Below, one piece after another: positions 28,718 through 45,323 of a stretch of 64,000 bases of DNA. This stretch comes from Bacteroidales bacterium (GTDB taxonomy: Bacteria > Bacteroidota > Bacteroidia > Bacteroidales > JAADJA01): assembly GCA_041393255.1 (NCBI GenBank), contig JAWKKM010000025.1, positions 6,850-70,849 of the forward strand. Direction: 5' to 3'. Each line of letters starts with the position of its first letter. Position 1 is the first letter of the stretch. Below the pieces are notes generated by a model. It worked only from the letters and a program-made list of their open reading frames with translations. It was not told the DNA's origin and did no database searches. The translations under genes were made by a program, and so were the position numbers.

Positions 28718-28930
28718 ATTATATCTGAATTTCTTAATCTGATTGATCCATTAAATACTAAGCACAAAGTAAAAGAAAATATAAATGTGATAGAAAGATT
28801 ATTTAATTTACCAATGGCTTAAATCAGTTAACGGTAGGTTTAATTAAGCTAAAGGATGATTCAATCAAAAATGAACCAGGAAAAATCAAGTAAATCCTCC
28901 AATTTTTACCAATACCTGCTCACTTTCAAA

Positions 28931-29165
28931 CCCCTCTCAGCGTAGTCTCCTGACTACGCCGCTTGTGAACCAGCAATCTCCCATTACAACCTAACAACCT
29001 TTGCCCTCCGCAGCTTCAGCGTAGGAGGGCCCTGCTTCTTTTTGGTGTTGTCACCAAAAAGCAGATTTTCCGTTCCCTGATCCTTTTCAACCGATAACTT
29101 TTTTTTCTTGTTTTTCAAAAAAACATATTTATCTTAGCAAAACCAAAACAACAACATAAATGGCC
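28931..29165. repeat. composite REP-like hairpin block (R-block), copy A, at the 5' border of cassette A
   Basis: It contains hairpins GCGTAGTC-TCCT-GACTACGC and GCCCTCC-N14-GGAGGGC, followed by CTGCTTCTTTTTGGTGTTGTCAC.AAAAAGCAGATTTTCCG.TCCCTGATC.TTTTCAACCGATAACTTTTTT. This is near-identical to 36385-36550 and partly to 42745-42860. Confidence 0.8.
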
Positions 29166-29248
29166 AATATTATCAATACAGGGTCAAATAATAAAACTTC
29201 TTTTATAGATGCTATACAGGAATCTTTCAATATTGGAATTTTAAGTAT

Positions 29249-29381
29249 TGAGTCCACTCCGAAAAGACAAACAGGACGTCATTGCGAGGGCGAAGCCCGA
29301 AGCAATCTGTTGATCTTATGTGACGAAAGATTGCTTCGCTGCGCTCGCAAAGACGATAAATCACTTTTCGGCGTGGACTCA
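29249..29381. mobile_element. 133-bp palindromic MITE-like element built from an inverted pair of REP units
   Basis: The terminal inverted repeats are TGAGTCCACTCCGAAAAG (29249-) and CTTTTCGGCGTGGACTCA (-29381). Its interior carries GTCATTGCGAGGGCGAAGCCCGAAGCAATCT facing AGATTGCTTCGCTGCGCTCGCAAAGAC. AGTAT flanks both sides (29244-29248 and 29382-29386). The element is absent from the paralogous leader of cassette B. Confidence 0.65.
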
Positions 29382-29447
29382 AGTATCGGAATTTGGAATT
29401 TGATCCCCTTTGCAATTAACCCCGTTTTTTGTTCGGAATTTCTAATA

Positions 29448-29602
29448 CCCCCCCCCCTCAATAAGTTACACAACCGGCACCTTTATAAAGTATAATACCT
29501 ATGTACACCGCTTGTTTTTATTTTGAAAAATTCAAAAAGCTAACAGCCAATGCCAACCAATCTAAGCAAAAAACAAAAAGTATAATTTGAAATAAAAAAC
29601 CA
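29448..29602 (+). promoter_or_regulatory. conserved leader/promoter block of cassette A, starting with a C10 homopolymer
   Basis: C10 at 29448-29457 is followed by TCAATAAGTTACA.AACCGGCA.CTTT.TAAAGT...AAAAAGCTAACAGC.AATGCCAACCAATC. Identity to 36667-36820 upstream of cassette B is roughly 85-90% by eye, at least as high as the adjoining coding sequence. Confidence 0.5.
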
Positions 29603-30703
29603 ATGAAGAGGAATATTTTAATTTTAAGTATAGTAGCAGGGGCAATAATAATTGTATTTTCCTGCTCCAAGGAAATGTCAAACAATTTTGATACCGGCAC
29701 AAGCAAAAACAACCAATTGACCGAATATGAAATCCAGGTAAACAAGAGCATAAAAGATTTCAAACAGAAGATGGCTTATTGCCGCGAAAACCCCCACCTG
29801 AAAAGCGGGGAAACCATACCCGCCGATTCAGCCGTATGGCTATTGGAGGCAACCATCAATTTCTCCCATGCGTTCCCCAATGAGTACAGCTAAATGAATT
29901 TGAAACCGACAGCCTGACCTTAACAGTTGCCCGCAATGCAGATGGCAGTGTGGACATCAATGAGTTGACAACAAAATACGATGAAATGAAACAGGCTGTG
30001 GCCGATGTTTACCACAGTTCAGGGTTTGAGGGAAAAGGGCTGGCAGTAGTTGACCTTTCAGAAACTTCCCAATCCCCTGATGAAATTACCATTACTATTC
30101 AAACGGTTACCGGGGACAAAGGCAATGAAACACCTTCACCCACCTTAGGGGTAAATGGCCCGTTTATACAAGGAGATGATTGGTGGTATGGCGAATTGTT
30201 AGGTCATTGTGACCCCCATACGCCAAGCAGTACTGATGCTGCAATAAAACTATATACCGCAATGAATACTTATTATCTGAACAAAATGCAGGATTGTATT
30301 TTGTAAGCCCAGTTTCATTTTTTCGAAAAGGGGGTGATGATAATGTAAGAAGAGTAGGTGATCCTGATCCGTTAGATAATAATCAAGATTATTATCTCTA
30401 TAGTATTATTGAAGGAGATGAAAATATAAATTTTGATGTAGATATGCTATGTCTTGAATGGACCGAAATGAATATCCATTTCAACCTGATGAAATACTAT
30501 ATCTATTATCGGATCTATGGTGTTATTCTTCCTGCTAATTATAAACCGTTTGAACTAACTACTAGACTGGGTTTTTTTATGAAGGTTTTGAACCTAACGG
30601 TACTCATTATTACCATAGTTTCACATTTCGATTCGGTATCCCTATTGGGTATGGTGAAGGTGAAGGACCAGGAGGAAATTTGTTGAAACCTTCCTTTTCT
30701 TAG
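29603..30703 (+). pseudogene. cassette A gene 1: lipoprotein of unknown function (paralog of 36821-37885), at least 3 frameshifts
   Basis: The lipobox is IIIVFSCSKE. Fragments 29603-29893, 29950-30306 and 30294-30686 align colinearly with the intact 354-aa paralog (..FPNEY..EF.TDSLTL...DGSVD..EL...YD.MK..VA..). The last shift is at the T-run near 30571-30577, and the stop is 30701-30703. Confidence 0.7.
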
Positions 30704-30803
30704 GATAATTTCAATGAAGCCTGAAGCTAATTGGACAATTATTTTCTGACTTCAGGCTTACATTAAGAAAATATAGATCAAATTATTAAAAATTATACTC
30801 CTT

Positions 30804-32285
30804 ATGAAAATCATACAAATATTTATATTCTTTCACCTTGTATTGATCAGTAGTTTTTGTTGTGGACAATACTCATTTGAATATAAAAAGGTTGGAAGTA
30901 ATAATGAAGGTTTATTTTACACATTTGAAAACTCTTCAAGTAATTATATTTCCGTTGGAGGAGGAAACAGTCAATGGGGTGTTGAGGACCCAACTTCAGC
31001 CTTAATTGTCAGAAATTGGAAGCAGGAAATGTAATAAATGAAGTTTATCAAACCAAACCGGATACAAGTTTTTCTTACTGGTACGGCTTTGAAAAAGAAA
31101 ATGGAAATTATTTCATTGTCGGTACGCTTTCCGATTCTGTATCTTATTATGATGAAAATGTTATCTACGTCTGTGAATTGACAAATTCTTTCAATCTGGT
31201 TTGGGAAAAATTTCATTTGTTCCCTTCCCCTTACAGAGATTGCAAGATCATTCACCATCTGATATTGCCGGACAATACCGTATTGATTGAAGGGAAAGCA
31301 GATTCTTCGCAATACAGTTTTAACGATCTTTTATTCACTGTTTTATTAGATCAGGATGGCAGCCTACTCGATTTCAATTTCTATGAGCACTGGAAAGAAT
31401 ATGGTGTTTACAGTGATATGATTTTTAACCAGGATACTACTGCAATTCAGTTTTTCGGGTCGTTTGCGTATTTATCTATAGGCATTGTTGCCACTTATTT
31501 TGAGATGGATTTAGACCTAAACATTATTAATAGTAGCATAAAATCAGAATTGCCAAACGGAGATTATATTAACTCCCCTTTTTCTATTGCATGGTTACCT
31601 TCTGGCAACCTGATTTCGTCTGATAGATGGGTCGATTATGGCGTTGGGGATTTAGGCTTGAAAATGACATTGATGGATGAAGAATTGAATGTTCTTCAAA
31701 CCCATACCATTGAATACGGTGGATTTTGTTATACACCAGTTTACGATGGCCTGGGATATGTTGACCCCGATAATATATGGGTCACAACATTCAGGGGAGC
31801 ATCTACAAGCTGGCCGGGAATTGAATTGCTGCATTTGCACATTTTTGATTCCAACCTCAACCTGAAAGGGGTGAAAGAATACGGGGATACAAGGTACTGG
31901 TTATGGAACCAAGTGGTAACTTCAGACGGCGGGTGCCTTGTTACAGGAATGATCCCCGATTGCGAAGGCTGTGATAACCACGATGGCTATATATTAAAGG
32001 TTATGCCGAAAGATGTTATTACAAAAATACCTGAAATTTCAGATAGCCTGCAAAATAATATTTCGGTTTATCCAAATCCTTTCAATGAAAGTATCACAAT
32101 TAAATGCGGGTATTCTAGGCTTTGACTTTTACATGTTTGATTTTACAGGCCAGCTTGTTTTAGAGTACAGTAATCAGTTTAACAATTGCAATATCAATAC
32201 AATGGATGTAATAAATGGCCTGTATTTCTATAAAATTATTAAGGATGGCAAAACCATTCAAACAAGTAAATTATTGAAAAATTAA
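30804..32285 (+). pseudogene. cassette A gene 2: secreted beta-rich protein with a T9SS CTD (paralog of 37913-39392), 2 frameshifts
   Basis: Fragments are 30804-31034, 31016-32125 and 32013-32285. Shared motifs with the paralog are KENGNYF(I/L)(V/I)G, WLP(S/D)GN, DPDNIWV and DG(G/S)C(L/I)(V/I)TGM(I/V)P. The CTD reads VYPNPFNESITIK...GLYFYKIIKDGKTIQTSKLLKN. Confidence 0.7.
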
Positions 32286-32297
32286 AAAAATAAAACA

Positions 32298-34085
32298 ATG
32301 AAACGAATAATAATATTGACAAGTTTATGCATAAGCTTAACAAGTTTTGTTAAATCGCAAAATTGCACACAGTGCGACAACTCTGGAAATCCTCCGGGCA
32401 CCTATGCCAGTGAAATAGGGCAAAACACTACAGCCGATGGTGATTGGTCATTTGCCGGCGGTTATTCAAGTCAATCATCAGGGGTTTTATCTTTTGCGTT
32501 TGGGGCAAATTGTAATTCAGATGGACCTTACTCTGTTACGCTTGGTCATTCAATTGAAGCTTATGGTCTACAATCAATGGTAATTGGAACCGGTGCCGGA
32601 AATGAAGAATCTGAATTATTAAAAAATTACAATTCACAATCTTTAATGATTGGGTTTGGTTCGGAAAAACCGTCATTATATGTTGGCCCCTCCTCACCTG
32701 GCCACACTGGATCCATCGGCATCGGCGACATAACCAACCCCCAGGCCAAGCTCCACATCAAAGCCGATAATGGCGAGCAGGCAGCCCTGTTCATCGAGCC
32801 TTACACTTTTGGTGGTACATACGATGCCGAACTTTGGATGGGCACCTCCGCTTACGGCCTCAGAGCCGCCTTTGGCAAATTGTACTTCAACACAGGCGGA
32901 CATTACATCTTCAACTCAGCGGATGCCAATGTAGGAATCGGGGTATTAGCCCCTGTTGAAAAACTCGAAGTCAACGGCAATATAAATATATCTAAAGGAA
33001 ACGCCCTGCTAACTGATCGGGTTCAGGGTACCGGTCAAAAAGGTTTAAACCTTGCCGGTCCATCCGGGATTGGTATTTATGTTGCCTACAATGGAAAAGT
33101 AGGAATTGGATTGACTAACCCATCTAACGAACTGGAAGTTAACGGCAAAATTAAAACTTCATCAATTCAGATTTCAACAGGCTACGGAAACGGTAAGCTT
33201 TTACAATCAGATGCTATGGGTAATGCCTTATGGTCAGATCCTGCATGGACGATAAGCGGCAGTAATGTATATAGAACAGTTGGAAATGTGGGTATTGGAA
33301 CCCCGGCAACTTCAAACAGGCTTGAAGTAGCAGGAACCGTAAATGCAACTAACTTCGTGGGTGATGGTTCAGGATTAACAAATATTTCAGGTGATAACCT
33401 GGGAAACCATGTAGCAACCCAAAATATTCAGATGAGTGGCAGATGGTTGTCAGGCGATGGTGGCGATGAAGGGATATATGTTAAGAATGATGGAAGTGTG
33501 GGGATTGGGTTATCCCCATCTTGCAATCTGGATGTTTCACAAACTTTTAAATGTGGTGAAATCCTCGGAAATAATTCGATATCTTCAGATTATTTTCAAA
33601 TTGCAGGAAGTACTAATACAGATGCCGCCAGTATTTTATTCGGTTGTGGTTCACAATATTCTGATTTAAAACTTGTATCAAATGGTATTGGAGGAATAGC
33701 TTTTTATACTAAAGATGCAGGGGTTACTTATCAAAGGATGACAATAAATAATAATTCTGTATTTGTGGGAACATCAGTTAATCAGGGTACTTTAACCGTA
33801 TATGGTAAAATTGATGCCGAAGAAATCGAAGTTCACGATATAATTTGGCAAGATCAAGTTTTTAAAGAGGACTATAATCTGAAAAGCATTTATGATCTTG
33901 AAAAGTATATAAAAGAATTCGGTCACTTACCAGATATACCCTCTGAATCTGAAATAGATGAGAATGGTGCAAACTTAGGTGACATTCAGGCTATGCTACT
34001 TCGAAAGATAGAAGAACTAACCCTGTATGTAATAGAGCTAAAACATGAAAATGAAAGGATTAAAAATTCCATTAATAAGAATTAG
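32298..34085 (+). CDS. cassette A gene 3: YadA-head-like / tail-fibre-like repeat protein with a C-terminal coiled-coil domain and no T9SS CTD
   Basis: 595 aa with a signal peptide. SxAxG-type head repeats are present (SFAGGYSSQSSGVLSFAFGANCNS). Fibre-type repeats include VGIGVLAPVEKLEVNGNI, VGIGLTNPSNELEVNGKI and VGIGTPATSNRLEVAGTV. The C-terminus reads DYNLKSIYDLEKYIKEFGHLPDIPSESEIDENGANLGDIQAMLLRKIEELTLYVIELKHEN. I recall that domain from Bacteroidota proteins annotated as tail fiber domain-containing. Confidence 0.7.
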   Translation: MKRIIILTSLCISLTSFVKSQNCTQCDNSGNPPGTYASEIGQNTTADGDWSFAGGYSSQSSGVLSFAFGANCNSDGPYSVTLGHSIEAYGLQSMVIGTGAGNEESELLKNYNSQSLMIGFGSEKPSLYVGPSSPGHTGSIGIGDITNPQAKLHIKADNGEQAALFIEPYTFGGTYDAELWMGTSAYGLRAAFGKLYFNTGGHYIFNSADANVGIGVLAPVEKLEVNGNINISKGNALLTDRVQGTGQKGLNLAGPSGIGIYVAYNGKVGIGLTNPSNELEVNGKIKTSSIQISTGYGNGKLLQSDAMGNALWSDPAWTISGSNVYRTVGNVGIGTPATSNRLEVAGTVNATNFVGDGSGLTNISGDNLGNHVATQNIQMSGRWLSGDGGDEGIYVKNDGSVGIGLSPSCNLDVSQTFKCGEILGNNSISSDYFQIAGSTNTDAASILFGCGSQYSDLKLVSNGIGGIAFYTKDAGVTYQRMTINNNSVFVGTSVNQGTLTVYGKIDAEEIEVHDIIWQDQVFKEDYNLKSIYDLEKYIKEFGHLPDIPSESEIDENGANLGDIQAMLLRKIEELTLYVIELKHENERIKNSINKN

Positions 34086-34087
34086 CT

Positions 34088-35515
34088 ATGAAAACAAAAC
34101 TTTCCTTATACATAATGTTACTATTTCCAATTTTACATCTGTATTGTCAGCCCCCTCAGGTTATATGGATACTTCCATCGTCGGGATCTCCAATTCCATT
34201 TGTTTATTCAGGTGGTGATGAATTTAATGGAGAAAGCCTTGACTTAGATAAATGGGATACACATGGAGGGCTTCATAATAGAAGGTGTAATTATGAAGTA
34301 CAGTATTACACAGATGAGAATATTGAGGTTTCAGATGGGAGCTTAAAACTAATTGCTAAACATGAAGATATTTTTGGTAAACCAATAGAATATGAGCCAG
34401 AGGATTATATTATTGGTGACTGTGGCGAACCAAATACTGCCCGGACCTGGCATTATACTTCTGGCAATATTTCCTACAAGAGGCCAATAAAATGGGAACT
34501 AATGGATTTTAGATGTAGGTTGCCAAATGAAGGACAAGGGCTTTGGGCTGCATTTTGGCAACATGGAGGAGTGCCGCCTGAGGAAATTGACTATATTGAG
34601 GCTAAAGGAGAAAGTCCGGAAGAAATACATGTTGCTATTCATTATCCAGATGGTTCATTGGATGGAGATTGGTGGGATTTAGGTTTTGACCTAACAAATG
34701 AATTGCGAGACTATTTATTTTTATGGAAACCTGGTATGGTAATTGCAAAATGTGAAAATATTCATGTTTGTTCGTATGATTTAACACCTGAATTGACAAA
34801 AGCAACACGTCCGATTATAAACCTTGCAATAGCTGGTAATGGTGATGTTCCCTTTTCGCCTGGCCCCAATGATGACACTGATTTTCCTGCTGTATTTGAA
34901 GTTGATCATATTCGATTTTATTCATTACTTGAAGAGGGCTCAATAATTGAAATCTGCAATTATTCCCAGGATCCTGAAGATATGACTTCATTATCTGGAG
35001 ATCAAATTACTTTGGGCGGGGATAATAATTGTCATTTTGAAATAAAGGAAAACGAGTTTTTAAGTGTAATTGCCTCAGATAACATATTGCTAAAAAAAGG
35101 GTTTCATGTTCATAGTGGAGGTAATTTTTCGGCACATATTGTGAACCTATATGATGACAATACTAAATCAGATAGCAGTTTGTTTTCAAAACATAAGACA
35201 GAACAATATTCTGCAAAATCAAATGATCAGGAAATATCGAATAACGACAAAAATGTTGTACAATCAATTGACCAATATAATTCTATTAAGATTTATCCGA
35301 ATCCTTCTCAGGGTGAAATCAATATTGAACTGTCAAAAGGGATAGAAAACATTATTTCAATTTCTTTATATAACAATAATGGTGAAGAAGTATTTGTTAA
35401 AAGAGAAATATTGTTATTCAATACAATATATATATCACATTTACCCTCAGGCTTCTATTTACTCAAAATCAAAACTTCTGACAAAGAATTAATTAACAAA
35501 ATAGTATTGAAATGA
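34088..35515 (+). CDS. glycoside hydrolase family 16 enzyme with a T9SS CTD
   Basis: 475 aa. The GH16 catalytic motif is EIDYIE (ExDxxE), with GLWAAFW upstream and an N-terminal EFNGESLDLDKWDTH. The CTD reads IKIYPNPSQGEINIEL...GFYLLKIKTSDKELINKIVLK. Confidence 0.8.
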   Translation: MKTKLSLYIMLLFPILHLYCQPPQVIWILPSSGSPIPFVYSGGDEFNGESLDLDKWDTHGGLHNRRCNYEVQYYTDENIEVSDGSLKLIAKHEDIFGKPIEYEPEDYIIGDCGEPNTARTWHYTSGNISYKRPIKWELMDFRCRLPNEGQGLWAAFWQHGGVPPEEIDYIEAKGESPEEIHVAIHYPDGSLDGDWWDLGFDLTNELRDYLFLWKPGMVIAKCENIHVCSYDLTPELTKATRPIINLAIAGNGDVPFSPGPNDDTDFPAVFEVDHIRFYSLLEEGSIIEICNYSQDPEDMTSLSGDQITLGGDNNCHFEIKENEFLSVIASDNILLKKGFHVHSGGNFSAHIVNLYDDNTKSDSSLFSKHKTEQYSAKSNDQEISNNDKNVVQSIDQYNSIKIYPNPSQGEINIELSKGIENIISISLYNNNGEEVFVKREILLFNTIYISHLPSGFYLLKIKTSDKELINKIVLK

Positions 35516-36069
35516 GGTGCGATATCAAAGTATTCATCATATGTGTAGTTTTATTAATTATGTTTAATAAAACTCTCCCTGCACAGAAAACAAAAAACAC
35601 AGGCTATTTCAATAATACTGATATTTCCTGGATCAAGGGTGTCGGGTCTGTCAAAAGATATACCATTTTTGTAACTAATGACGAATCCAATTGGGCAATA
35701 GTTACAGTAAACGGAATTAAACACAAAAGCTCCGTTTTTGGTATTGGAGCGGGGTATGAACAATGGGCTAACTCCTATACCATCCCTGCATTTTTAAGGT
35801 ATCAGTTATTTATTAAAGATATCAAACCTTCAATATTTGAATACATTGATGCTGGATATGCTTTCGGTTCTGCAAAAAAAGACCCTGAAGAAAAGGGCCG
35901 GTTTATTTTTAGCATTGGTTTGGGTACCAATATCAAAATTGATAAAGGTACTCATATTTCCCTTGCCTTTTTCTACAAACTGCAACATTTACTGGTTGAA
36001 AGTTACAATGGGGATTATACTACAAATTACAATTTCATTGGTTTGAAAGTTGGTGTTGCTTTCTACTAA
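35512..36069 (+). CDS. small outer-membrane beta-barrel-like protein
   Basis: 185 aa. It has a signal peptide, alternating beta-strand patterns and a C-terminal ...GLKVGVAFY. Its start overlaps the GH16 stop (ATGA at 35512-35515), suggesting translational coupling. Confidence 0.45.
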   Translation: MRCDIKVFIICVVLLIMFNKTLPAQKTKNTGYFNNTDISWIKGVGSVKRYTIFVTNDESNWAIVTVNGIKHKSSVFGIGAGYEQWANSYTIPAFLRYQLFIKDIKPSIFEYIDAGYAFGSAKKDPEEKGRFIFSIGLGTNIKIDKGTHISLAFFYKLQHLLVESYNGDYTTNYNFIGLKVGVAFY

Positions 36070-36100
36070 AACCAACCAGCTCCCACATTAAAGCTTTACA

Positions 36101-36550
36101 TCTCGGCGGGGTCTCCCCGCTCCGCCGTTTGAACTATCAATCTCAGATTGTATTTCCATCAATAAAATTCAGTCATATCAACCACCCAAGCATTCACCAC
36201 CCTCGGCAGAGTCTCCTGACTCCGCCGCTTGAAGCAGCAATCTCCGATTACAACTTAACCACCCTTGCTCTCCGAAGCTTTAGCGAAGGAGTGCCCCATC
36301 AAATCAATCGCCTTCTTCAAATACCGGTTCTCCTCCCGCAGCCTCTCAACCTCCGCTGTCAGTTCATCAATACGTTGGTCCTTGCCCTCCGTAGCTTCAG
36401 CGCAGGAGGGCCCTGCTTCTTTTTGGTGTTGTCACTAAAAAGCAGATTTTCCGATCCCTGATCTTTTTCAACCGATAACTTTTTTTTTCTTGCTTTTTGA
36501 TAAAACATATTTATCTTAGCCACACCAAAACAAAACAAAAACCGAATGGC
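36101..36550. repeat. R-block copy B (expanded), at the junction of cassette A and cassette B
   Basis: Two hairpin copies are present (CGGCGGGG-TCT-CCCCGCTCCG and GGCAGAGTC-TCCT-GACTCCGCC). On the minus strand there is a short coiled-coil-like relic DQRIDELTAEVERLREENRYLKKAIDLM (36296-36380). The GCCCTCC-N14-GGAGGGC segment follows and is near-identical to 29012-29165. Confidence 0.8.
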
Positions 36551-36666
36551 CGTGATTTTCAGTATAGGGTCAGTAAGTAAAATATTTTCCGCCAATGGAA
36601 ACATTGTTTTTTTCCCTTTTGGAATTTCGAAACTTAAATATTATAATTTCATCCTGTCCCTAAATA

Positions 36667-36820
36667 CCCCCCCCCTCAATAAGTTACAAAACCGGCAACT
36701 TTTTAAAGTGCAATTCCTATGTGCACCGCTTGTATTTATTTTGAAAATTTCAAAAAGCTAACAGCAAATGCCAACCAATCCAAGCAAAAAAAAAAAAGTA
36801 AAATTTAAAATACAAAATCA
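36667..36820 (+). promoter_or_regulatory. conserved leader/promoter block of cassette B, starting with a C9 homopolymer
   Basis: C9 at 36667-36675, then sequence paralogous to 29458-29602. An A12 run lies at about 36787-36798. Confidence 0.5.
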
Positions 36821-37885
36821 ATGAAGAGGAATATATTAATTTTAAGTATTGTAGCAGCGGCACTAATAATTGTGTTTTCCTGCTCCAAGGAATCATCAAA
36901 TAATGTTGATGCCGACAAAAACATCCAATTGACCGGATATGAAATCCTGGTAAACAAGAGCATAAAGGATTTCAAGCAGAAAATGGAATATGTACGCGCT
37001 AACCCGTACCTGAAAAGCGGCGAAAGTGTGCCAGCCGATTCTGTACTTTGGTACCTCGAGGCAACCATCAACTATTCCCATGGGTTTCCCAATGAGTATT
37101 ATCAAGAGTTTCAAACGGATTCCCTCACCCTTTCCATTGATAAAAATGAAGATGGAAGCGTGGATATGGCAGAACTTACCCAGGAGTATGACCTGATGAA
37201 ATCCGAAGTAGCTACGGCTTACAATGCCTCCACCTTTACTAATAAAGGGCTTACATTGATTGATTTGGAGGTAACTTCTGAAACAGATGAAGAAATTGTA
37301 ATTTCCGCAACAAGTATTACCGGAAAAATTAACCCAAACCCCGATACCACAAAGTGGTATAATGTAGGTAGTTGGGAATATGGTGAAAATGGCGGATATT
37401 GTAATAGTTCATTAGGTGACGGGGACGCCTCTGAGCAATTTCTTCACAGGATTTATTGGCTTATTGCCTCCAATGGTAAAACAAATACCTTCTTTGATGA
37501 AATACAAGTAGTAGATGTAAAAGGAGGCGACCCCGATTTCCTTGTTAACCCTTCCCTACCGGCTGATAACCACCTCGACTATTATCTCTATTATTCCATT
37601 GATGGAACACCCATATACTGGGATGAGGATATGCTGTGCATTCCAAATGCCGACATGAATGCTTACAATAATTCTATCTACACATTACTTTACGATTACT
37701 TGCCAAACGACTACCTTCCTGCAAATTATGGTGGCCAGAATTATTATATTATTTCTTGTTTGCAATTTTTTGATGGGAAAGGCCCTGCTTTTCCAGCAGG
37801 GTACGAGTATTATCATAAAGGAAAATTCGAATATGGGTATGATATTGAATATTCAGAAGGGAATTACCCAACCGAGATTGAATAG
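36821..37885 (+). CDS. cassette B gene 1: lipoprotein of unknown function (intact paralog)
   Basis: 354 aa. The lipobox is LIIVFSCSKE. I recognise no domain. It is Tyr/Asp/Asn-rich, with a C-terminus GYEYYHKGKFEYGYDIEYSEGNYPTEIE. Confidence 0.7.
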   Translation: MKRNILILSIVAAALIIVFSCSKESSNNVDADKNIQLTGYEILVNKSIKDFKQKMEYVRANPYLKSGESVPADSVLWYLEATINYSHGFPNEYYQEFQTDSLTLSIDKNEDGSVDMAELTQEYDLMKSEVATAYNASTFTNKGLTLIDLEVTSETDEEIVISATSITGKINPNPDTTKWYNVGSWEYGENGGYCNSSLGDGDASEQFLHRIYWLIASNGKTNTFFDEIQVVDVKGGDPDFLVNPSLPADNHLDYYLYYSIDGTPIYWDEDMLCIPNADMNAYNNSIYTLLYDYLPNDYLPANYGGQNYYIISCLQFFDGKGPAFPAGYEYYHKGKFEYGYDIEYSEGNYPTEIE

Positions 37886-37912
37886 TATATGGAACTCATT
37901 TAATCCTGAAAT

Positions 37913-39392
37913 ATGAAAAATCTACTATTTATTGTACTATTTATACCTTTGGTTTCTTTATCCCAGGTGGGATTTGAATATATACTGGAAGATACCATAG
38001 ATTCCAAGTGTTATTCAAGTTTTATGGATGACCAGGGCTATATTGTTTCTCTTGGAACGATTTATAATCCAACTTCTGATTTGTATGATGCATTGATCCT
38101 CAAATACCAGGATTCCTCAGATGTATTAGAGAAAAAATTTAATCCTGGTGGGATGAATTGCGGGTTTTGGTTTGGAAGCCAAAAAGAAAATGGAAACTAC
38201 TTTCTAATAGGTTTGACCTGGGAGCCATATTTTAGCTTGTATTTTGCAGAAGTGGACCAGGAATTGGAATTAGTACAGGAAACCTATTATCAGGTTCAAT
38301 TCGATTACCATTGGATAAATGTACAAGAATCCTTTGAGGATGAAAATAATACAATAATACTAACTGGCGCATTGTATAATGAAATTTATCAGCAATTAGG
38401 CATGTTCGTTACCAGGGTCAATAAAAATGGCGAAGTATTGAAAACAACAATAATAACAGATCTTTATTGTAACTCTGGCATAGAATTTATCAAAAAACTT
38501 GATGGTTCCGGATATTATTTGATAGGCACATCTCAGGAGGATATTATTATATTTGATAACGATCTTGATGTTGTTGATTACCAGTTTTATCCTGTCGGCA
38601 GTGTATTTAATACACCACTTGCATTGCGATGGCTTCCCGATGGAAATATTATGGTCGCGAATATGATAAATCAGGGAGTACCCGGTGCGTATTATGATAT
38701 CCGATTAAGGATAGTGGATGAAGGTTTTAACACAATAAAAGACACTACATTCTTCGATGAGGGTAAAAACTGGCCGGCTGATCTTAGCAGTCTCGACTAT
38801 ATTGACCCGGATAATATCTGGGTGGTTTCCCAGGAGAAAAGCTGGAAATCTTCTAAAGATGAATGGGAGCATGCAAGGGTATATATTGTTGATTCGGAAT
38901 TGAATGTGAAGGGTGCAAAATACTTTGCCGGTGAGCTTGAGGTTTATTTGTTTTCGACAAAAGTTTTGGAAGATGGGAGTTGCATTATCACCGGGATGGT
39001 GCCTAAAGCTGGAAAACCTACTGACTATAATGCATATATCCGAAAAATAATGCTCGATGATGTTTTAACCGCTGCCGAGGAAACTGTAGCAGAAGATGAC
39101 AGCGATGTCCTCCTCTACCCTGTACCTTTCGAAAAGAGGCTAAATATCGAAACTTACCGGAAAAATTTATCCCTTTCGATCTTCAACGAAAATGGGATTT
39201 GCATTATTGAAAAACAAGCTTTGCAAATTCCATATACTTACTAGAGATAATACGAATGATTTAATAAGCGGGGTTTACCTCTATTCTGTATATGACAAGA
39301 ACAAAGTCATAGAAACAGGAAAGATTGTTAAAAAAATAGATTTTATTTACCCGGAATATACATTTATTAACCTTAGAAAATTTATCAAATGA
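37913..39392 (+). pseudogene. cassette B gene 2: secreted beta-rich protein with a T9SS CTD, one frameshift inside the CTD
   Basis: ORF 37913-39244 (443 aa) and ORF 39192-39392 overlap out of frame. The CTD text is LLYPVPFEKRLNIE... then ...GVYLYSVYDKNKVIETGKIVKKI. The stop overlaps the start of gene 3 (ATGA at 39389-39392). Confidence 0.7.
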
Positions 39393-41236
39393 AAAATTTT
39401 ATAGCAGTTTTAGCAGTATTAGTCGCATTATCAGTTAATGCACAGGTAAATTATTACAATACCACCACAAATGGCACATACTCAAGTGCAATCGGTTTAA
39501 ATAATGATGCCGACGGGGCTAATGCCTTTGTAGGAGGCGGAAATTCAAAAGCACATGGCCAAAACTCATTCGCTTTTGGTAATTCGGCAGAGGCTACAGC
39601 AACTGATGCTATTTCATTGGGATTATCTGCCAAAAGTAACGGAGTAGCTTCATTTACAATTGGAAGTTATCTCACAGCTCAAGGGACTAACTCTTTCATA
39701 ATTGGAAAAGGAATTACTTCAATCTATCGTTTAAATAATACGATTCCGAATTCCATTATGTTTGGAATGAATGCAACAAAACCAACTTTATTTATAAGCC
39801 CGACTTACGGTCTTGATAAAACTGGAAAGGTAGCCATTGGGAACATGACCAACCCACAAGCCAAACTCCACATCAAAGCCGACGATGGTGAGCAGGCGGC
39901 CCTGTTCATTGAGCCTTACACTTTTGGTGGCACATACGATGCCGAACTTTGGATGGGCACCTCCGATTATGGGCTAAGGGCCGCTTATGGCAATTTGTAT
40001 TTCAATACCGATGGGCATTACATCTTCAATTCAGCGGATGCCAATATGGGCATTGGGGTATTACTCCCCACCGAAAAACTCGAAGTCAATGGAAAAGTAA
40101 AAAGTACCGGATTCCAGCTTATAAACGGACAACAAGGAGAAGGGAAATACTTAAGCAGCGATTCGGATGGTAATGCCAGTTGGGAGGAATTTAATATTAA
40201 CAGTTTCGAATGCCTTGCATCAGGTGAATATGCCAATACGTTGGGAAAATGGGATACAGCATCAGGGGATTTTTCTTTTGCCGGAGGAGTAAATACAAAA
40301 TCCGAAGGACATGTTTCTTTTGCCTATGGTGCCTGGGCCCAAACTTCAGGATCCCATAGTTTTGCTTTGGGTGTAGGAACTAAGGCGACAAATACCAGTT
40401 CATTTGCCATAGGAAGCAGATGTGCTGCAACTGCCTCCAATTCTATTGTCATTGGCAGGGGGTTAAGCGCTGATGAAATGTTGATAAATAACATCGATAA
40501 TTCACTGATGATTGGATTTAGTTCTGATAAACCTACTTTGCTTGTTACTTCGGCTTTTGGCAAAGGTTCCACCGGAAAGGTTGGTATCGGTGATATCCCT
40601 GAGCCACAGGCAAAACTTCATATAAAAGGAGGCCAGAACGAACAGGCCACGTTGTTTATTGAACCCTACGTTTTCGGTGGAACATACTATGCCGCGCTCA
40701 GAATGGGAACTGAGGATTACGGCCTTGTAACAACCTACGGACGAATGTCATTTAAAACCGGTGGAAACTACATCTTTGATTCGCCCGGTGCCTTTGTCGG
40801 AATAGGGACTAACTACCCAATTGCAAAACTTCATGTTACAGGAAACATTTTTATTGATGATCAAAACTCAGGCATTATTCTCAAATCGCCCGATGGGCAA
40901 TGTTGGAAAGGGATGATATCAAATGAAGGGGCATTAGCTTTTGAGCCTATTGATTGCGACCTCACAACCAATACCTCTCCAGAACCAGAATCGGCAAACC
41001 CACATGTAGTTATATTTCCAAATCCGACAAAAGACAATATCCGTATCCGCAAATCAGATCAATCTGTATTGTTTGCAAGCATAATTGATATGAACGGAAT
41101 TTTGCTTCAAACCATAGAACTGTTTGAAAATGAAACCGAAATATCCTTAAGTGGATTTTCTGCCGGATGCTACTTCATAAGGATAACCAATGAAAATAAT
41201 CAGTTAATAGTCAACGAAAAAGTAATCAAAAATTAA
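39389..41236 (+). CDS. cassette B gene 3: YadA-head-like / tail-fibre-like repeat protein with an internal duplication and a T9SS CTD
   Basis: 615 aa. There are two copies of a module made of head repeats, (K)PTL(F/L).., NPQAKLHIK..EQA.LFIEPY.FGGTY.A.L.MGT.DYGL and ..IF.S. The CTD reads VIFPNPTKDNIRIRKSD...CYFIRITNENNQLIVNEKVIKN. Confidence 0.75.
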   Translation: MKNFIAVLAVLVALSVNAQVNYYNTTTNGTYSSAIGLNNDADGANAFVGGGNSKAHGQNSFAFGNSAEATATDAISLGLSAKSNGVASFTIGSYLTAQGTNSFIIGKGITSIYRLNNTIPNSIMFGMNATKPTLFISPTYGLDKTGKVAIGNMTNPQAKLHIKADDGEQAALFIEPYTFGGTYDAELWMGTSDYGLRAAYGNLYFNTDGHYIFNSADANMGIGVLLPTEKLEVNGKVKSTGFQLINGQQGEGKYLSSDSDGNASWEEFNINSFECLASGEYANTLGKWDTASGDFSFAGGVNTKSEGHVSFAYGAWAQTSGSHSFALGVGTKATNTSSFAIGSRCAATASNSIVIGRGLSADEMLINNIDNSLMIGFSSDKPTLLVTSAFGKGSTGKVGIGDIPEPQAKLHIKGGQNEQATLFIEPYVFGGTYYAALRMGTEDYGLVTTYGRMSFKTGGNYIFDSPGAFVGIGTNYPIAKLHVTGNIFIDDQNSGIILKSPDGQCWKGMISNEGALAFEPIDCDLTTNTSPEPESANPHVVIFPNPTKDNIRIRKSDQSVLFASIIDMNGILLQTIELFENETEISLSGFSAGCYFIRITNENNQLIVNEKVIKN

Positions 41237-41258
41237 AAAATGAATAGTACCTTATGCG

Positions 41259-41428
41259 GGGGCTACCAATTCCAAAGGTTGAAATGACAAAACCTTTCCG
41301 AAAAAGAAGTATTATAAAACGGGATCAATGTGGGCGAAATGAATGCTTTGCTGCTACAAAAAATTGAGGAACTCACACTTCATATTATCGAATTGGAAAA
41401 ACGACTAAGTGTTGTCGAAAATAATTAA
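41259..41428 (+). pseudogene. relic of the tail-fibre C-terminal coiled-coil domain, orphaned downstream of cassette B gene 3
   Basis: It reads GYQFQRLK*QNLSEKEVL*NGINVGEMNALLLQKIEELTLHIIELEKRLSVVENN* (stop 41426-41428). This is colinear with the A3 C-terminus ..DYNLKS...IPSESEIDENGANLGDIQAMLLRKIEELTLYVIELKHEN.., but has internal stops and a deletion. Confidence 0.65.
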
Positions 41429-41435
41429 CATACAA

Positions 41436-41957
41436 ATGAAAATGGGTGGCAATTTAACGCTAATCGTAATAATAACACTTATTTGGTTAAATAGCTTTCA
41501 ATCAGTAGGTCAGTCCGATACTACTAAAACACGTAAAATCAAATTTGATTGGGAGCTTGCCCCTCCGGGTGCCGGTTTTAATTTTTCACTCAACAGTAAT
41601 AATGCGAATTCTTTTGGAATCGGAATAAGTATATTAAACCCAACCATAGCTATTGCCCCAGTTGAAGTTGCCCGAGATGATGTGTTATATAGTATTGATC
41701 TTATATACTGGAAGTTTTTTTATAGAAATCGAATCAATAAACGAATTGCTATGGAGTATTCTTTAAAACATGGCTTTTCAAATTTAGTTTACGGACCAAA
41801 TACAGACTTATTTACTCAATTGCTTGGTTTTCAATTTGCCATCAGTTTAGGAGTGCGAAAAGTTAAATATAAACCTTCCATTTCAGTTGTACGTTCATTA
41901 GAAATTCCAACAACCTTTGTTTATGTAATGCCATTGGTTTTTAATTTTAATTTATAA
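41436..41957 (+). CDS. small secreted/outer-membrane-like protein of unknown function
   Basis: The ORF track starts at GTG 41409, inside the relic; ATG 41436 (MKMGGNLTLIVIITLIWLNSF) is preferred. The protein is hydrophobic at the N-terminus and beta-rich, ending ..MPLVFNFNL. Confidence 0.45.
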   Translation: MKMGGNLTLIVIITLIWLNSFQSVGQSDTTKTRKIKFDWELAPPGAGFNFSLNSNNANSFGIGISILNPTIAIAPVEVARDDVLYSIDLIYWKFFYRNRINKRIAMEYSLKHGFSNLVYGPNTDLFTQLLGFQFAISLGVRKVKYKPSISVVRSLEIPTTFVYVMPLVFNFNL

Positions 41958-41967
41958 ATACGAAAAA

Positions 41968-42366
41968 ATGAAATCAATAATAACAACCTTACTTTTATTT
42001 GTTTTTAGCTTTGCTAAAACTCAACCGATAATACCTGAGATAATTAGTATCTATCCTCCTTACTTATGTCCGTTACTTTGTAACTGGAGTAATTGCCAGC
42101 CGCATCTACCATTTGGTGCTTTGAGCCAACAAAATGTTGACAGGGACATTAAATTTAAAGCAGCATTTGGCAAAGATTGCCTATACAAGGACAGCAAAAC
42201 CGGATGGAATAAACTTGAAGTGATAAGGAGAGCATTTTATCAACAAGAAAGATCGCTCCGTCTTGGTTGGCGTACAAATCAAACAACGGAAGAATTTGAA
42301 ATTGGTTTGTATGCCCATATTGATGGGAAAATAGAATCCGTTAATATGGATTTTCAACCCACCTAA
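41968..42366 (+). CDS. small secreted protein of unknown function, possibly nonsense-interrupted
   Basis: 132 aa with a signal peptide (MKSIITTLLLFVFSFAKTQ). After the TAA at 42364-42366 the same frame stays open for another 56 codons (GLTKSYWYYLRMAWHGMYVRAGDNSYCIKRKIFEPGVTYITALVGIYFG*). Confidence 0.45.
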   Translation: MKSIITTLLLFVFSFAKTQPIIPEIISIYPPYLCPLLCNWSNCQPHLPFGALSQQNVDRDIKFKAAFGKDCLYKDSKTGWNKLEVIRRAFYQQERSLRLGWRTNQTTEEFEIGLYAHIDGKIESVNMDFQPT

Positions 42367-42744
42367 GGCCTAACGAAATCTTATTGGTATTATTTAAGAA
42401 TGGCCTGGCATGGTATGTATGTCCGTGCAGGCGATAATTCTTATTGTATCAAAAGAAAGATTTTTGAACCCGGTGTAACTTACATTACAGCTTTAGTGGG
42501 TATTTATTTTGGATAACCCCATGACCACGCTTGACATATCAAAAAATCAAAAGATAATACACTTAAGTAATGAAGGAGTATTTCTCGATTTGTGTCTGGA
42601 CATTGCCTTTTCCACCATCAGAACTTAACTAACAAACTTCCGGCATCTTTTGATGGTTTTGTAATTTGTGAATAATATATCATTTATTAATACTGTACTT
42701 TATTTGGCCCCAAATGGCGCAAGGCCCCCCTGTGCCCACCCAAA

Positions 42745-42860
42745 ACTCAGCATAGTCTCACGGCTACACCGCTTGTAGGAACCAGCAATCTCCGAATACT
42801 ACCTATTCACACTTGCCCTCCAGAAGCTTCAGCGCAGGAGGGCCCATCAATAGCCAATTG
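42745..42860. repeat. R-block copy C (truncated), at the 3' border of cassette B
   Basis: CTCAGCATAGTCTCACGGCTACACCGCTTGTAGGAACCAGCAATCTCCGAATACTACC...GCCCTCCAGAAGCTTCAGCGCAGGAGGGCC is colinear with 28937-29030 and 36201-36412. Confidence 0.75.
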
Positions 42861-43049
42861 CTCCCCGTCATTGCGAGCGCAGCGAAGCAATCTGATACAA
42901 AGTTTCAACTCCCCGTCATTGCGAGCACAGCAAAGCAATCTGTATTAAGCTACAACTCCCCGTCATTGCGAGCGCAGCGAAGCAATCTGTACAAAGTTTC
43001 AACTCCTCGTCATTGCGAGCACAGCGAAGCAATCTGTATAAAGTTGCAA
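42861..43049. repeat. tandem array of four 47-48-bp REP units
   Basis: The units are 42861-42908, 42909-42955, 42956-43002 and 43003-43049. Each reads CTCCCCGTCATTGCGAGC(G/A)CAGC(G/A)AAGCAATCTG + TA.AAAGTT.CAA. The same core also forms the MITE-like element at 29249-29381. Confidence 0.85.
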
Positions 43050-43166
43050 CTCAAGCAACCGCGATGCCGTTGGCTGCGTCACACCCAAAAGCCTTGCCAG
43101 CCTCGCCTTCGTCATCAACGGAGGCAGCTGTTCACCAATCAATTTCCCAATATGAACCCGCTCCAT
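42999..43166 (-). CDS. 55-codon HTH (XRE-like) mini-ORF, probably a truncated DNA-binding gene whose 3' end is replaced by REP sequence
   Basis: My manual reverse-complement translation is MERVHIGKLIGEQLPPLMTKARLARLLGVTQPTASRLLELQLYTDCFAVLAMTRS*. TKARLARLLGVTQPTASRLLE fits a helix-turn-helix. The last ~15 codons are encoded by the REP unit. 43050-43166 is about 56% GC by hand count, in an AT-rich context. It falls below the ORF-track length cut-off. Confidence 0.4.
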   Translation of the reverse strand: MERVHIGKLIGEQLPPLMTKARLARLLGVTQPTASRLLELQLYTDCFAVLAMTRS

Positions 43167-43185
43167 AATATTTTAGTTTCTTATA

Positions 43186-43458
43186 AAACTAACAAATTAT
43201 GTTAGTTTATTAAGCAGTTACTTTAATTTACTAAACACTTACTTCAACCTTTTAAACATTATCTTTAATTTATTAAACCTCGACTTTATTTATCTAACTA
43301 CATACTTCTATTTCTTAAGCACGGGCTTTAATTTCTTATACCTGTATTTTAATTATCTAAACACAGACGTTAATTATTTAAGCCTGATCTTTAATTTGGT
43401 TAACCTCAATAGCTATTTATTAAGCCTCGAAAGTAATTTGTTAAACGGGTTGCACAGA
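43186..43458. repeat. 13 head-to-tail, exactly phased 21-bp units, consensus TTnTTAARC-N5-CTTTAAT, non-coding
   Basis: The TAA cores lie at 43190, 43211, 43232, 43253, 43274, 43295, 43316, 43337, 43358, 43379, 43401, 43421 and 43442, so the spacing is 21 bp (20-22 at one pair). Example units are ttattaagcagttactttaat, ttcttaagcacgggctttaat and tatttaagcctgatctttaat. Stop codons occur in all six frames. Confidence 0.85.
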
Positions 43459-43527
43459 CAACCGGATGGGTGTTAGAAATACGTCCCGCAAAAAATGATT
43501 TACAGTATTACCTATACCTGCTCACCT

Positions 43528-44451: not shown

Positions 44452-44456
44452 TTCTA

Positions 44457-44909
44457 TTAATTATTATATCGGTTGTAGCTTTTGGATATTAAAATCACCC
44501 CGATTACAATTAAAATAACCGGCCACAGATCGCCGAAATCAATTCGGGGAACAAACCTGTCAATTAAAAAAAGAACGCCCAAAGTTATGAGGATTAACCC
44601 ACCCCATAAATTGGAATTATTCTTTTGTTGGTTTTTCTGATGTTCATTACTTTCATCAGGAATTTCAAAATCATTTTTTTCTTCAGCCATAGTATTGGTA
44701 TTTGATTGATTAGTGTATGCAATATTTTCAACCGGTATCGCAATCCACAGGATGATGTAGACCAGCAGGCCACTACCCCCCACAAAAAAATGCAACAGCA
44801 AACAAAACCCTGAAAAGGACAGGCGTCCGCTTTCAGGTAACGCCAAGGCCACCACAAACACCGGCAATAACAGAATTGCGATTACTCGGTATAAACGAGA
44901 TTGTTCCAT
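44457..44909 (-). CDS. PspC-domain membrane protein; the ORF is open but its N-terminal PspC motif is scrambled by compensating indels
   Basis: The frame-A ORF has ..FFVGGSGLLVYIILWIAIP (the end of the PspC domain). The canonical motif SNRNSVIAGVCGGLGV and the segment PVLFRVLFAVAFF are readable only in a second frame, and YLKAD only in a third. All of this falls between about 44770 and 44890. Confidence 0.7.
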   Translation of the reverse strand: MEQSRLYRVIAILLLPVFVVALALPESGRLSFSGFCLLLHFFVGGSGLLVYIILWIAIPVENIAYTNQSNTNTMAEEKNDFEIPDESNEHQKNQQKNNSNLWGGLILITLGVLFLIDRFVPRIDFGDLWPVILIVIGVILISKSYNRYNN

Positions 44910-45323
44910 AATTAGAATTTACAAATATAAATCTTTTTACCAGAAATAACCACCCCAATGCAGAACGTACAAGCCAAAAAACATAAGTTCAATATCTTTT
45001 TCAACGCCCTGTAAGGGATCCCAGATCAAACTTGTTAGGATAAAACCCACAGAGACCCTCCTTCCACTCAGATCAGTCGGACTTTTAAAAATTTGATTCT
45101 CAAAATTAAAGTCTTACTGATTTATGATGACGCAGAATTACCATTCCCGTTACAAAATTCAGAACAATTTTTAATATCATTTGTTAAGACTGTAATAGTA
45201 AAGTTATTTTGACAAATGTCTAAAAAAGCAGGTTTTTACATATAAGGTTAAGAAAATCTAAAATTTGTTTACTATTTTTACCATCATTTTTAACAATATT
45301 CAAATTAATAGTAAATCATTAAC

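Follow-up and report, generated by a model that had tools for sequence, protein, structure and literature searches.

We analyzed a stretch of 64,000 nucleotides from contig JAWKKM010000025.1 of a Bacteroidales bacterium (the window; position 1 is its first letter). Within the window are two consecutive gene cassettes, which we will call unit A (28930 to ~36095) and unit B (36096 to ~42740). In both units, a hairpin block is followed by a promoter-like site, a leader with a poly-C tract, and three genes: g1, which encodes a lipoprotein; g2, which encodes a protein with a type IX secretion system (T9SS) C-terminal domain (CTD); and g3, which encodes a fiber protein. A preliminary description of this DNA had reported two units with hairpin blocks, a poly-C leader, and three colinear genes, and we found all of these elements at or near where it placed them; none of them is there by chance. 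The genes and leader features of both units are on the forward strand.

According to the preliminary description, g1 encodes a lipoprotein of 354 amino acids in both units. This is correct for unit B (B1, 36821-37885), whose protein is identical to locus R2764_16040 from a metagenome-assembled genome (MAG) of a Bacteroidales bacterium. But in unit A, g1 (A1, 29603-30686; identified by tblastn with B1 and other g1 proteins) is not an intact open reading frame (ORF). It has at least three frame changes and uses all three frames, with pieces at 29603-29887, 29893-30288, and 30270-30593 and a short return at 30587-30655.

B1 has the lipobox FSC, and its cleavage-site cysteine is followed by SKE. 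The lipobox (F/Y)(S/A)C is conserved in full-length homologs of g1, and 30 homologs conserve both the lipobox and K/E after the cysteine. Most of the proteins have C-S-K-E-x, with lysine at +3 and one acidic residue, while KDD or KEE is found in only a few. This is reminiscent of, but does not fully match, the lipoprotein export signal of Bacteroidetes, which is K-(D/E)2, or a similar sequence, between positions +2 and +6 (PMC5080379). Two cysteines are invariant in the g1 family, which also shares a strongly conserved motif near its N-terminus (NP.LKSGE.VPADSALWYLEATINYSHAFPNEYY). A word-indexed search found 33 homologs, and an exhaustive profile search found 1064 clusters at 50% identity with E <= 1e-3 (617 of them with E <= 1e-10). 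The family is unannotated: B1 and ten distant members had no match in Pfam, and B1 also had no match in NCBIfam, PHROG, or PADLOC.

In unit B, g2 (B2, 37913-39392; main ORF 37913-39244) encodes a signal peptide, a beta-propeller, and a type-A T9SS CTD. In unit A, g2 (A2, 30804-32285) encodes a beta-propeller with a T9SS CTD, and is split into three ORF fragments (30804-31034, 31016-32125, and 32013-32285). The CTD end of B2 is also in another frame (39192-39392); with two indel corrections, near 39235 and in an A-run at ~39330, B2 matches homologs of 473 amino acids. As split by the frameshift, the CTD of B2 scores 13.6 bits, and the second fragment matches TIGR04183 (E = 3.7e-4). The motifs KENGNYF, DPDNIWV, and DGxCxxTGMxP, which had been described as shared, are indeed present in A2 and B2 alike. 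We found 23 homologs of g2, and most of those listed carry the CTD family PF18962. Outside of the CTD, g2 does not belong to any family in Pfam, NCBIfam, PHROG, or PADLOC. A structural model of g2 from AlphaFold 2 is a beta-propeller (pLDDT 81, pTM 0.80) whose closest matches in fold are the CylK propeller, Dfer_1899, and sialidases.

The g3 protein belongs to a much larger fiber family, with over 1800 matches. A3 (32298-34085) has 595 amino acids, with a signal peptide and a conserved C-terminal domain of ~95 amino acids that is not a CTD of the T9SS. B3 (39389-41236) has 615 amino acids, with a T9SS CTD (PF18962, E = 2e-12) and an N-terminal module that is duplicated internally. Similarity of g3 to known fibers is weak. 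B3 has a match below the cutoff to YadA-head repeats (PF05658; E = 1.3e-4, 22.7 bits as compared to a cutoff of 25), and A3 has none. Matches to EmaA, Ata, and YadA in NCBIfam have E values of 1e-8 to 1e-6, with scores far below the curated cutoffs. The fiber body matches the tail-fiber family phrog_9942 (E = 2e-9 over ~100 residues), and there is weak similarity to the beta-helix region of Bd2133 (PDB 8ond, E = 0.006). Neither A3 nor B3 has a match to the YadA-type membrane-anchor domain at E <= 0.1, and g3 does not match Peptidase_S74.

Across the family, the C-terminus of g3 is of two kinds. It is either the conserved domain of 95 amino acids (...LLxKIEELTLYVIE, with a coiled-coil end) or a T9SS CTD. 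(A profile search of the PDB with A3's domain and a Pfam scan gave spurious coiled-coil matches only; the domain has no counterpart in either.) Directly past the stop codon of B3, and in the frame of B3, an alignment of the domain identified a decayed copy of the A3-type C-terminal domain (41282-41410; SEKEVL*NGINVGEMNALLLQKIEELTLHIIELEKRL). This remnant implies that the C-terminus of the fiber was replaced by a T9SS CTD, and we conclude from these sequences that the C-termini of g3 appear to be exchangeable.

The triad is a real conserved module. We fetched loci from other genomes via g1 and used tblastn to find their genes. In 29 of the 39 distinct loci (which we number with the prefix L), g1, g2, and g3 are present in this order. 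The other 10 loci include five that are cut by the end of a contig (four end right after g2 or within g1, and in L032 the end falls in g1 of the second unit of a tandem array), three that have g1 and g2 and then other genes, and two with a divergent middle gene. All 39 loci are from MAGs and none are from isolates; nearly all are labelled as Bacteroidales or Bacteroidetes, along with a few "Chlorobiota" and one Acidaminococcaceae. This gene-neighborhood census bears out the earlier proposal that the lipoprotein, the CTD protein, and the fiber form a functional module that is conserved across genomes. The earlier statement that the module does not match a described system also stands: g1 and g2 have no curated family, and we did not come across the combination in Pfam, NCBIfam, PHROGs, PADLOC, or the literature that we searched. 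This is a new three-gene module that is confined to uncultured anaerobic Bacteroidota; its g1 family by itself comprises over 1000 unannotated clusters at 50% identity.

Several genomes have two or three copies of the cassette, and tandem units are found in L021, L025, and L032. In L021, only ~80 nt separate g3 from the next g1. The flanking genes vary between loci. In L008 (8857-18722), the cassette lies between a Transketolase_N gene and a Transket_pyr gene; these genes for transketolase subunits are normally adjacent, which suggests that the cassette was inserted as a unit. Part of L064 (1-5249) is syntenic with 7246-13913 of the window, with genes for an 855-amino-acid BNR/sortilin-like CTD protein, a radical SAM protein, a DUF362 protein, and a ferredoxin-type protein. 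The cassette is directly after the ferredoxin-type gene in L064, while in the window it is 15 kb away, so the position of the cassette differs between close relatives. L066 (5620-6000) is a natural deletion variant in which the promoter and the leader-peptide region are joined to the last ~25 codons of g1; an intact g2 is next.

The genes after g3 vary by locus, and include genes for a GH16 glycoside hydrolase with a CTD (GH16-CTD), a pectate-lyase-fold protein (in L008), a trypsin-like protease (in L001), and an SpvB/TcdB/RHS protein. In L005 (14119-20930), the triad is followed by genes for a CTD protein of 161 amino acids and an SpvB/TcdB/RHS-repeat protein of 2109 amino acids. GH16-CTD is the fourth gene in three independent loci (unit A, L001/L012, and L019). 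In unit A, the GH16 hydrolase A4 (34088-35515; PF00722, E = 1.4e-7) has a type-A CTD (PF18962, E = 4e-13), and the start of A5 (35512-36069) overlaps its stop by 4 nt; the earlier report had a GH16-CTD enzyme translationally coupled to a gene resembling those for outer membrane proteins. A5 is a small secreted beta-rich protein. We could not verify its resemblance to outer membrane proteins, and we rejected the idea that it is a conserved one: it has no family match and is not similar to B4 or to its equivalent in L001. Unit B has, as reported, two genes for small predicted secreted proteins, B4 (41409-41957) and B5 (41968-42366). A5, B4, and B5 have no family match in Pfam, NCBIfam, PHROG, or PADLOC.

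The proposed link between the triad and the T9SS also holds up, with PF18962 in g2 homologs and clear type-A CTDs in B3 and A4. N-terminal Sec signal peptides are predicted in g2, g3, and A4; as read from the translations, these are hydrophobic and end in ..SQ or ..AQ. Other CTD proteins are encoded in the window at 19981-23301 and 55256-55720, which suggests that the organism uses the T9SS.

Upstream of g1, each unit has a promoter-like site, P1, of the Bacteroidetes type. In unit A, P1 (29108-29137) has TTG, 19 nt, and then TATCTTAG; in unit B, P1 (36490-36519) likewise has TTG, 19 nt, and TATCTTAG, and is 92% identical to unit A over 152 nt. The block with P1 is conserved in L001, L002, L003, L032, L046, L064, and L068, and it contains the only TAnnTTT[GA] (-7) box upstream of g1 in those loci. 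We infer that P1 is the promoter of g1, which would give a leader of 200-470 nt.

In unit A, an upstream ORF with an ATG start (29160-29495, 111 codons) reads through a tract of ten C (C10, 29448-29457). In the +1 frame, the tract is followed by a tail, SISYTTGTFIKYNTYVHRLFLF and a stop (TGA, 29524-29526; tract and tail span 29448-29526), and an invariant 17-mer, CCCCTCAATAAGTTACA, is at 29454-29470. In unit B, the upstream ORF (36546-36761, 71 codons) contains a C9 tract (36667-36675), and the +1-frame tail, SISYKTGNFLKCNSYVHRLYLF and a stop (36676-36744), is directly after the tract. The C10 and C9 tracts are 146-155 nt before the ATG of g1 (29603 and 36821). The preliminary description had placed the tract at the beginning of a conserved leader; there is indeed a conserved leader with a poly-C tract before g1, but the tract is not just its start, as it lies inside the upstream ORF.

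This arrangement recurs. At every locus with a poly-C tract, an ATG-initiated ORF opens 31-48 nt beyond the first base of the -7 box and runs on into the tract. In shuffled sequences, such an ORF is not frequent: the p values for individual loci are 0.025-0.11, and for unit A, it was found in 0 of 2000 shuffles. After the tract, one frame runs into an immediate stop at all loci (PPQ-stop, with the TAA inside the invariant TCAATAAG). Another frame stays open for 13-15 codons at most loci, and for ~30 in unit B, L046, and L064. The third frame has 17-22 codons and ends with ...V-(Y/H)-R-(L/F)-x-L-F-TGA in most loci, or ...LYLFHLF-TAG in L046; this is the tail. In most loci, the stop of the tail is 76-114 nt before the ATG of g1. 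Within the tail, conserved residues are encoded by different codons (CGC, CGG, CGA, or AGG for arginine; TTA, CTT, CTG, or TTG for leucine; and GTA or GTG for valine). This synonymous variation argues that the tail is under selection at the peptide level and is translated. We also considered the zero-frame PLNKLQ as the conserved peptide, but L002 and L010 read the other frame here, and the synonymous signature is in the +1 tail.

The frame of the tail relative to the ATG-initiated ORF differs between loci. The tail is +1 at seven loci whose tract is slippery (unit A, unit B, L001, L003, L046, L064, and L067). At five others (L002, L010, L016, L018, and L068), the tail is in frame, and four of these five have an interrupted tract or no tract. 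Among the 12 loci, the tail is never at -1. L010 and L067 have near-identical leaders: the tract is C7ACC in L010, with the tail in frame, and C14 in L067, with the tail at +1. It is not the case that interrupted tracts are always in frame, as L064 (C7TC3) is +1 and L068 (C9) is in frame; this is only a tendency.

Simple repeats are concentrated upstream of g1, with 0.83 per kb as compared to 0.009 per kb elsewhere in these loci, or ~90-fold enrichment. The C10 and C9 tracts are the only such repeats in the 64-kb window. In the same zone of other loci, we found (AG)19, (AG)8, (CCTA)14, (TGTA)4, C8, and C11, and each of these is within the ATG-initiated ORF.

We made several other observations about the leader. 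A search for the 17-mer in metagenomes gave 17 matches without a poly-C tract or a g1 gene, and this number is within the range estimated for chance. We rejected an attenuator or terminator hairpin in the leader: RNAalifold reported no consensus pairs, and a scan for sigma-70 sites and terminators showed no enrichment. The spacer between the stop of the tail and g1 is A-rich and G-poor. In L064 (5731-5950), this spacer contains (GTCGGCA)6 and ~25 copies of AGCCAAC, and arrays of the heptamer AACCAGY are in the same spacer in L010 (~6310-6375) and L067 (~1125-1170); the window has only about three degenerate copies (AGCTAACAGCCAATGCCAACC). The upstream ORF of unit A contains an insertion of 131 nt (29250-29380) that resembles a miniature inverted-repeat transposable element and has terminal inverted repeats of 17 nt (GAGTCCACTCCGAAAAG). 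The leader of L003, an unrelated locus, also carries an element with these ends (9856-10008), and there are no further copies in the window or in the fetched loci.

The preliminary description interpreted the two units as a tandem segmental duplication, which implies a recent event. This did not hold up. A2 and B2 are only 23% identical over the g2 alignment (26% by tblastn), and they belong to different deep clades of the g2 tree: A2 groups with L003 and L019 (43-46% identity), and B2 groups with L009 (63%). Each of them is far closer to genes from other genomes than to the other. A2 is 46% identical to L003, with 45% across all three fragments of A2, and B2 is 79% identical to P0035. At the nucleotide level, the two units are not similar outside of a few patches. 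These are the first hairpins (28930-29032 in unit A and 36196-36296 in unit B, 82% identity); the hairpins and promoter (29001-29151 and 36382-36533, 92% over 152 nt); the leader and the 5' end of g1 (29444-29886 and 36663-37098, 84%); and a segment of 267 nt in g3 (32720-32986 and 39835-40101, 84%).

The proteins show the same patchwork. By tblastn, A1 and B1 are 77% identical over the first 93 amino acids, and the remainder is 46% and then 41% identical. The N-terminus of A1 is more similar to B1 (77%) than to the relatives from its own clade (61-65%), while the middle part of A1 is less similar to B1 (46%) than to those relatives (53-58%). A3 and B3 are 49% identical, and only over the N-terminal 250 residues, while the leaders are 84-88% identical. 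High-identity patches amid deep divergence fit with ancient paralogs that have been partly homogenized. To judge from these sequences, the units are two ancient paralogous cassettes in tandem, and the patches fit recent gene conversion that homogenized the 5' ends and part of g3.

We propose that the cassettes form a family of switchable, T9SS-linked surface fibers, or adhesins, and we would put the probability of this at roughly 55%. In our proposal, g1 would be a lipoprotein of the outer membrane, possibly exposed at the surface, that acts as an anchor or assembly factor. The g2 protein would be a beta-propeller that is exported by the T9SS and attached to the surface via its type-A CTD, also as an anchor or an assembly partner. 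The g3 protein would be a Sec-exported trimeric fiber of the YadA-head or phage-tail-fiber kind. Where the fiber lacks a CTD, the propeller, which bears one, could carry or anchor it. Together, g1, g2, and g3 would form a fiber or adhesin at the cell surface, and variable enzymes or toxins with CTDs, such as the GH16 enzyme in unit A, would be co-expressed. Gene conversion at the 5' ends and within g3 would swap sequence between the two tandem copies. That the cassettes are multi-copy, diverged, and recombining, and that the fiber ends are exchangeable, fits a binding function under diversifying selection. The triad is thus a candidate for the means by which uncultured anaerobic Bacteroidota attach to particles or to other cells.

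Each cassette would have its own promoter and a leader of 200-470 nt, and the poly-C tract is probably an on/off switch of the cassette. As to how the switch works, we can offer a tentative mechanism, which we regard as possible with the odds against it: a +1 shift at the poly-proline-coding tract gates the operon via the arrest-like tail. The leader peptide would be interrupted by the slippery repeat, and the conserved tail would be reached only after a change to the +1 frame. If the change is due to slippage of the DNA, the result would be heritable on/off phase variation. If it is due to slippage of tRNA-Pro or of RNA polymerase, the result would be conditional control. CCC-C is prone to +1 frameshifting by tRNA-Pro (PMC4519876, PMC7577736), and a conditional switch of this kind would respond to EF-P, to tRNA modification, or to proline status. 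A ribosome that reaches the stop codon of the tail would license the transcription or translation of g1-g2-g3; one option is that it occludes a region where Rho loads, in the manner of tnaC. The assembly of a surface fiber, the anchoring roles of g1 and g2, and the gating of the operon by the leader are all things that we infer from sequence.

Several points count against this proposal. A repeat or the conserved tail is detectable at only about a third of the loci. We did not see polymorphism in tract length, for which the only possible comparison was between L003 and L004, which are identical over 4.9 kb. We did not find a conserved RNA structure in the leader with RNAalifold. Fibers of the A3 type have no recognizable T9SS signal (no type-A CTD and no detectable type-B signal), which leaves their route across the outer membrane unexplained. 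The AlphaFold 2 model of B1 has a pLDDT of 67 and no fold match in the PDB or BFVD, and the propeller fold of g2 is generic. All of the homologs are from MAGs, and the functional steps are proposals drawn from sequence and models. Finally, the lengths of homopolymers, including the C tracts, are unreliable in this contig, which is indel-rich.

The indels are apparently in patches. For instance, the genes for isocitrate dehydrogenase (icd) and citrate synthase (gltA) are shattered over all three frames (45300-48000, forward strand), and a ferredoxin-type (Fer4) gene is split into two overlapping ORFs (12359-13913, forward strand) while its ortholog in L064 is an intact ORF of 523 amino acids. 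Because housekeeping genes are broken too, the frame breaks in the cassettes cannot be read as pseudogenization. As a practical matter, broken ORFs from this contig should not be taken for pseudogenes.

The hairpin blocks mark the borders of the units. Block A (28930-29098, forward strand) has three GC-rich hairpins (~28940-28959, 29003-29030, and 29032-29064), and its minimum free energy of folding has z = -6.3 relative to dinucleotide shuffles. Block B (36096-36445, forward strand) is a longer mosaic of the hairpin units of block A, with z = -4.7. A third block had been described as closing the array, and we found it at 42740-42845 (block C, forward strand); it is followed by four tandem units of 47 nt that resemble repetitive extragenic palindromic elements (42861-43052). 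For the hairpin units that the blocks share, the expected number of chance matches is 0, and within the 64-kb window these units are confined to the region of the array. The preliminary description attributed the duplication to recombination between these blocks; the blocks may have brought the two units together. Tandem cassettes are present in other MAGs as well. Another hairpin, GTCATTGCGAGCGCAGCGAAGCAATCT, is in each of the 47-nt units, and one inverted copy of it is at 29328-29354, inside the insertion in the leader of unit A.

The entire two-unit island is enclosed by direct repeats of 26 nt that are identical at 24 of 26 positions. The left copy (TTACCAATACCTGCTCACTTTCAAAC, 28906-28931) abuts hairpin block A, and the right copy (43508-43533) overlaps the stop codon of a LiaF-like gene (43528-44451, reverse strand). 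These repeats may mark an insertion between a TonB-dependent receptor gene and the LiaF-like gene; there is no recombinase gene at the island. The TonB-dependent receptor gene is divergent, upstream of the island, and has no SusD partner. Directly downstream and on the opposite strand (43528-44909), two adjacent genes encode LiaF/LiaI-like transmembrane domains and PspC-like domains, which are typical of envelope-stress proteins. Between the island and the convergent LiaF-like gene, a non-coding array (43181-43430) has ~12 tandem units of 21 nt with the consensus TTTAATTTAYTAAAC-NNNN-AC, for which TRF reports periods of 21 and 63; phased A/T tracts and protein-binding iterons are both possibilities. 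The 64-kb window has no known RNA families or tRNAs, and there were no PADLOC matches to defense systems.

Besides a switchable adhesin, we considered that the cassette might be a module for nutrient capture. The fiber and a lectin-like propeller would bind particulate polysaccharide, and the enzymes with CTDs (GH16, the pectate-lyase-fold protein, or the protease) would degrade it, so that the cassette would be a T9SS analogue of a polysaccharide utilization locus (PUL). In its favor, GH16-CTD follows the triad in three independent loci, and a pectate-lyase-fold gene follows it in L008. Furthermore, the propeller resembles sialidase and lectin propellers, and there is a divergent TonB-dependent receptor gene upstream of the island. 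However, a SusC/SusD pair and a sugar-sensing regulator are absent from the cassettes and from the homologous loci; as there is no SusC/D, the cassette is not a PUL. Also, in most loci the fourth gene varies or is missing, and in L005 it is toxin-like (SpvB/TcdB/RHS). Finally, it is adhesins, more than catabolic loci, that typically show on/off switching and diversify as multiple copies. Overall, nutrient capture seems unlikely to us.

Another idea is contact-dependent antagonism or the recognition of prey: the variable fibers would recognize cells, and the secreted enzymes or toxins would be the payload. Consistent with this, the cassettes are multi-copy and diverged, the C-termini of the fibers are exchangeable, L005 has an SpvB/TcdB/RHS gene and L001 a gene for a trypsin-like protease after the triad, and g3 is weakly similar to the Bd2133 fiber (PMC10769870). 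But toxin-like cargo was found in one locus only, we did not identify an immunity gene, the match to Bd2133 is weak (E = 0.006), and the fetched loci do not have genes for a type VI secretion system or another delivery system nearby. We consider it quite improbable that the cassettes are for antagonism.

We also considered a degenerate tail-fiber module of a prophage or tailocin, or another kind of mobile island. The matches of g3 to tail-fiber PHROGs, the direct repeats of 26 nt around the island, the location between transketolase genes in L008, and the different position of the cassette in the syntenic L064 would all fit with this. However, none of the cassettes contains, or lies next to, an integrase, a transposase, or a further phage gene; there is no relative of g1 in 2.9 million viral contigs; g1 and g2 do not match any PHROG; and all of the products have export signals that are typical of cell-envelope proteins. 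So a phage or mobile-element origin is very unlikely. Although this contig is indel-rich, and stretches of 150-440 nt at the borders of the units that are 84-92% identical could mislead an assembler, we can hardly credit that the tandem, or part of it, is a mis-join of loci or strains at shared hairpin, promoter, and leader sequences, as the divergence between the units is far too great for collapsed copies, L021, L025, and L032 have independent tandem cassettes, and the junction (36070-36545) has unique sequence between the repeated blocks.

If the cassettes are surface fibers as we propose, then the triad is a new T9SS-associated fiber system, and it can be compared to several known systems. 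Type-A cargo of the T9SS (Por_Secre_tail; PF18962/TIGR04183) has an N-terminal signal peptide and a C-terminal domain, as do g2, B3, and A4. Unlike known cargo, the cargo of the cassettes is encoded in a module of three fixed genes, together with a lipoprotein and a fiber, and the A3-type partner lacks the CTD. This poses a question about the T9SS: the fibers without a signal are always encoded beside a partner with a CTD, so how do such fibers reach the surface?

Trimeric autotransporter adhesins such as YadA, EmaA, and Ata have repeats like the YadA-head-like repeats in the N-terminal part of g3 (which are below the curated cutoffs). But g3 lacks the YadA-type anchor and ends instead with a T9SS CTD or a novel domain of 95 amino acids. 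Without such an anchor domain in the membrane, g3 does not count as a trimeric autotransporter, and its export would not be of type Vc. The mosaic adhesive trimer (MAT) fibers of Bdellovibrio, which include Bd2133, are involved in cell recognition (PMC10769870). Like these fibers and those of phage tails, g3 combines a signal peptide with a conserved module at the N-terminus, a fiber body, and exchangeable C-terminal ends, and it has weak sequence similarity to the beta-helix region of Bd2133 and to tail-fiber PHROGs. However, g3 does not have an S74 chaperone domain, it is from another phylum, it always comes with g1 and g2, and the C-terminus of some g3 proteins is a T9SS CTD.

The leader also resembles known systems in part. 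Contingency loci with simple sequence repeats include the poly-C tracts in the fim promoters of Bordetella and the repeat tracts in genes for surface proteins of Neisseria and Haemophilus. As at those loci, homopolymer, dinucleotide, and tetranucleotide repeats are enriched upstream of multi-copy genes for surface proteins. But here, the tract is in a separate short leader ORF instead of a promoter spacer or a structural gene. The gene for RF2 (prfB) has a programmed +1 frameshift, and TnaC is the arrest-type leader peptide of the tna operon. As in prfB, a conserved downstream segment is +1 after a slippery site for tRNA-Pro in some loci and in frame in others; but the leader does not have a Shine-Dalgarno-like stimulator or an in-frame stop at the site of the shift. 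As in tnaC, a leader peptide with a conserved C-terminus and a stop is followed by an A-rich, G-poor spacer before the operon; but the tail is not related in sequence to known arrest peptides.

In summary, the parts of the cassette are of known kinds (T9SS cargo, a fiber that resembles trimeric autotransporters and tail fibers, a lipoprotein, and a repeat that may act as a switch), while their combination has not been described, and we would place the cassette among switchable surface-adhesin loci. On/off control in a translated leader peptide with a +1-frame end, instead of in a promoter or a structural gene, would be unusual, and this placement of the putative switch in a +1-frame leader peptide is what sets the cassette apart.

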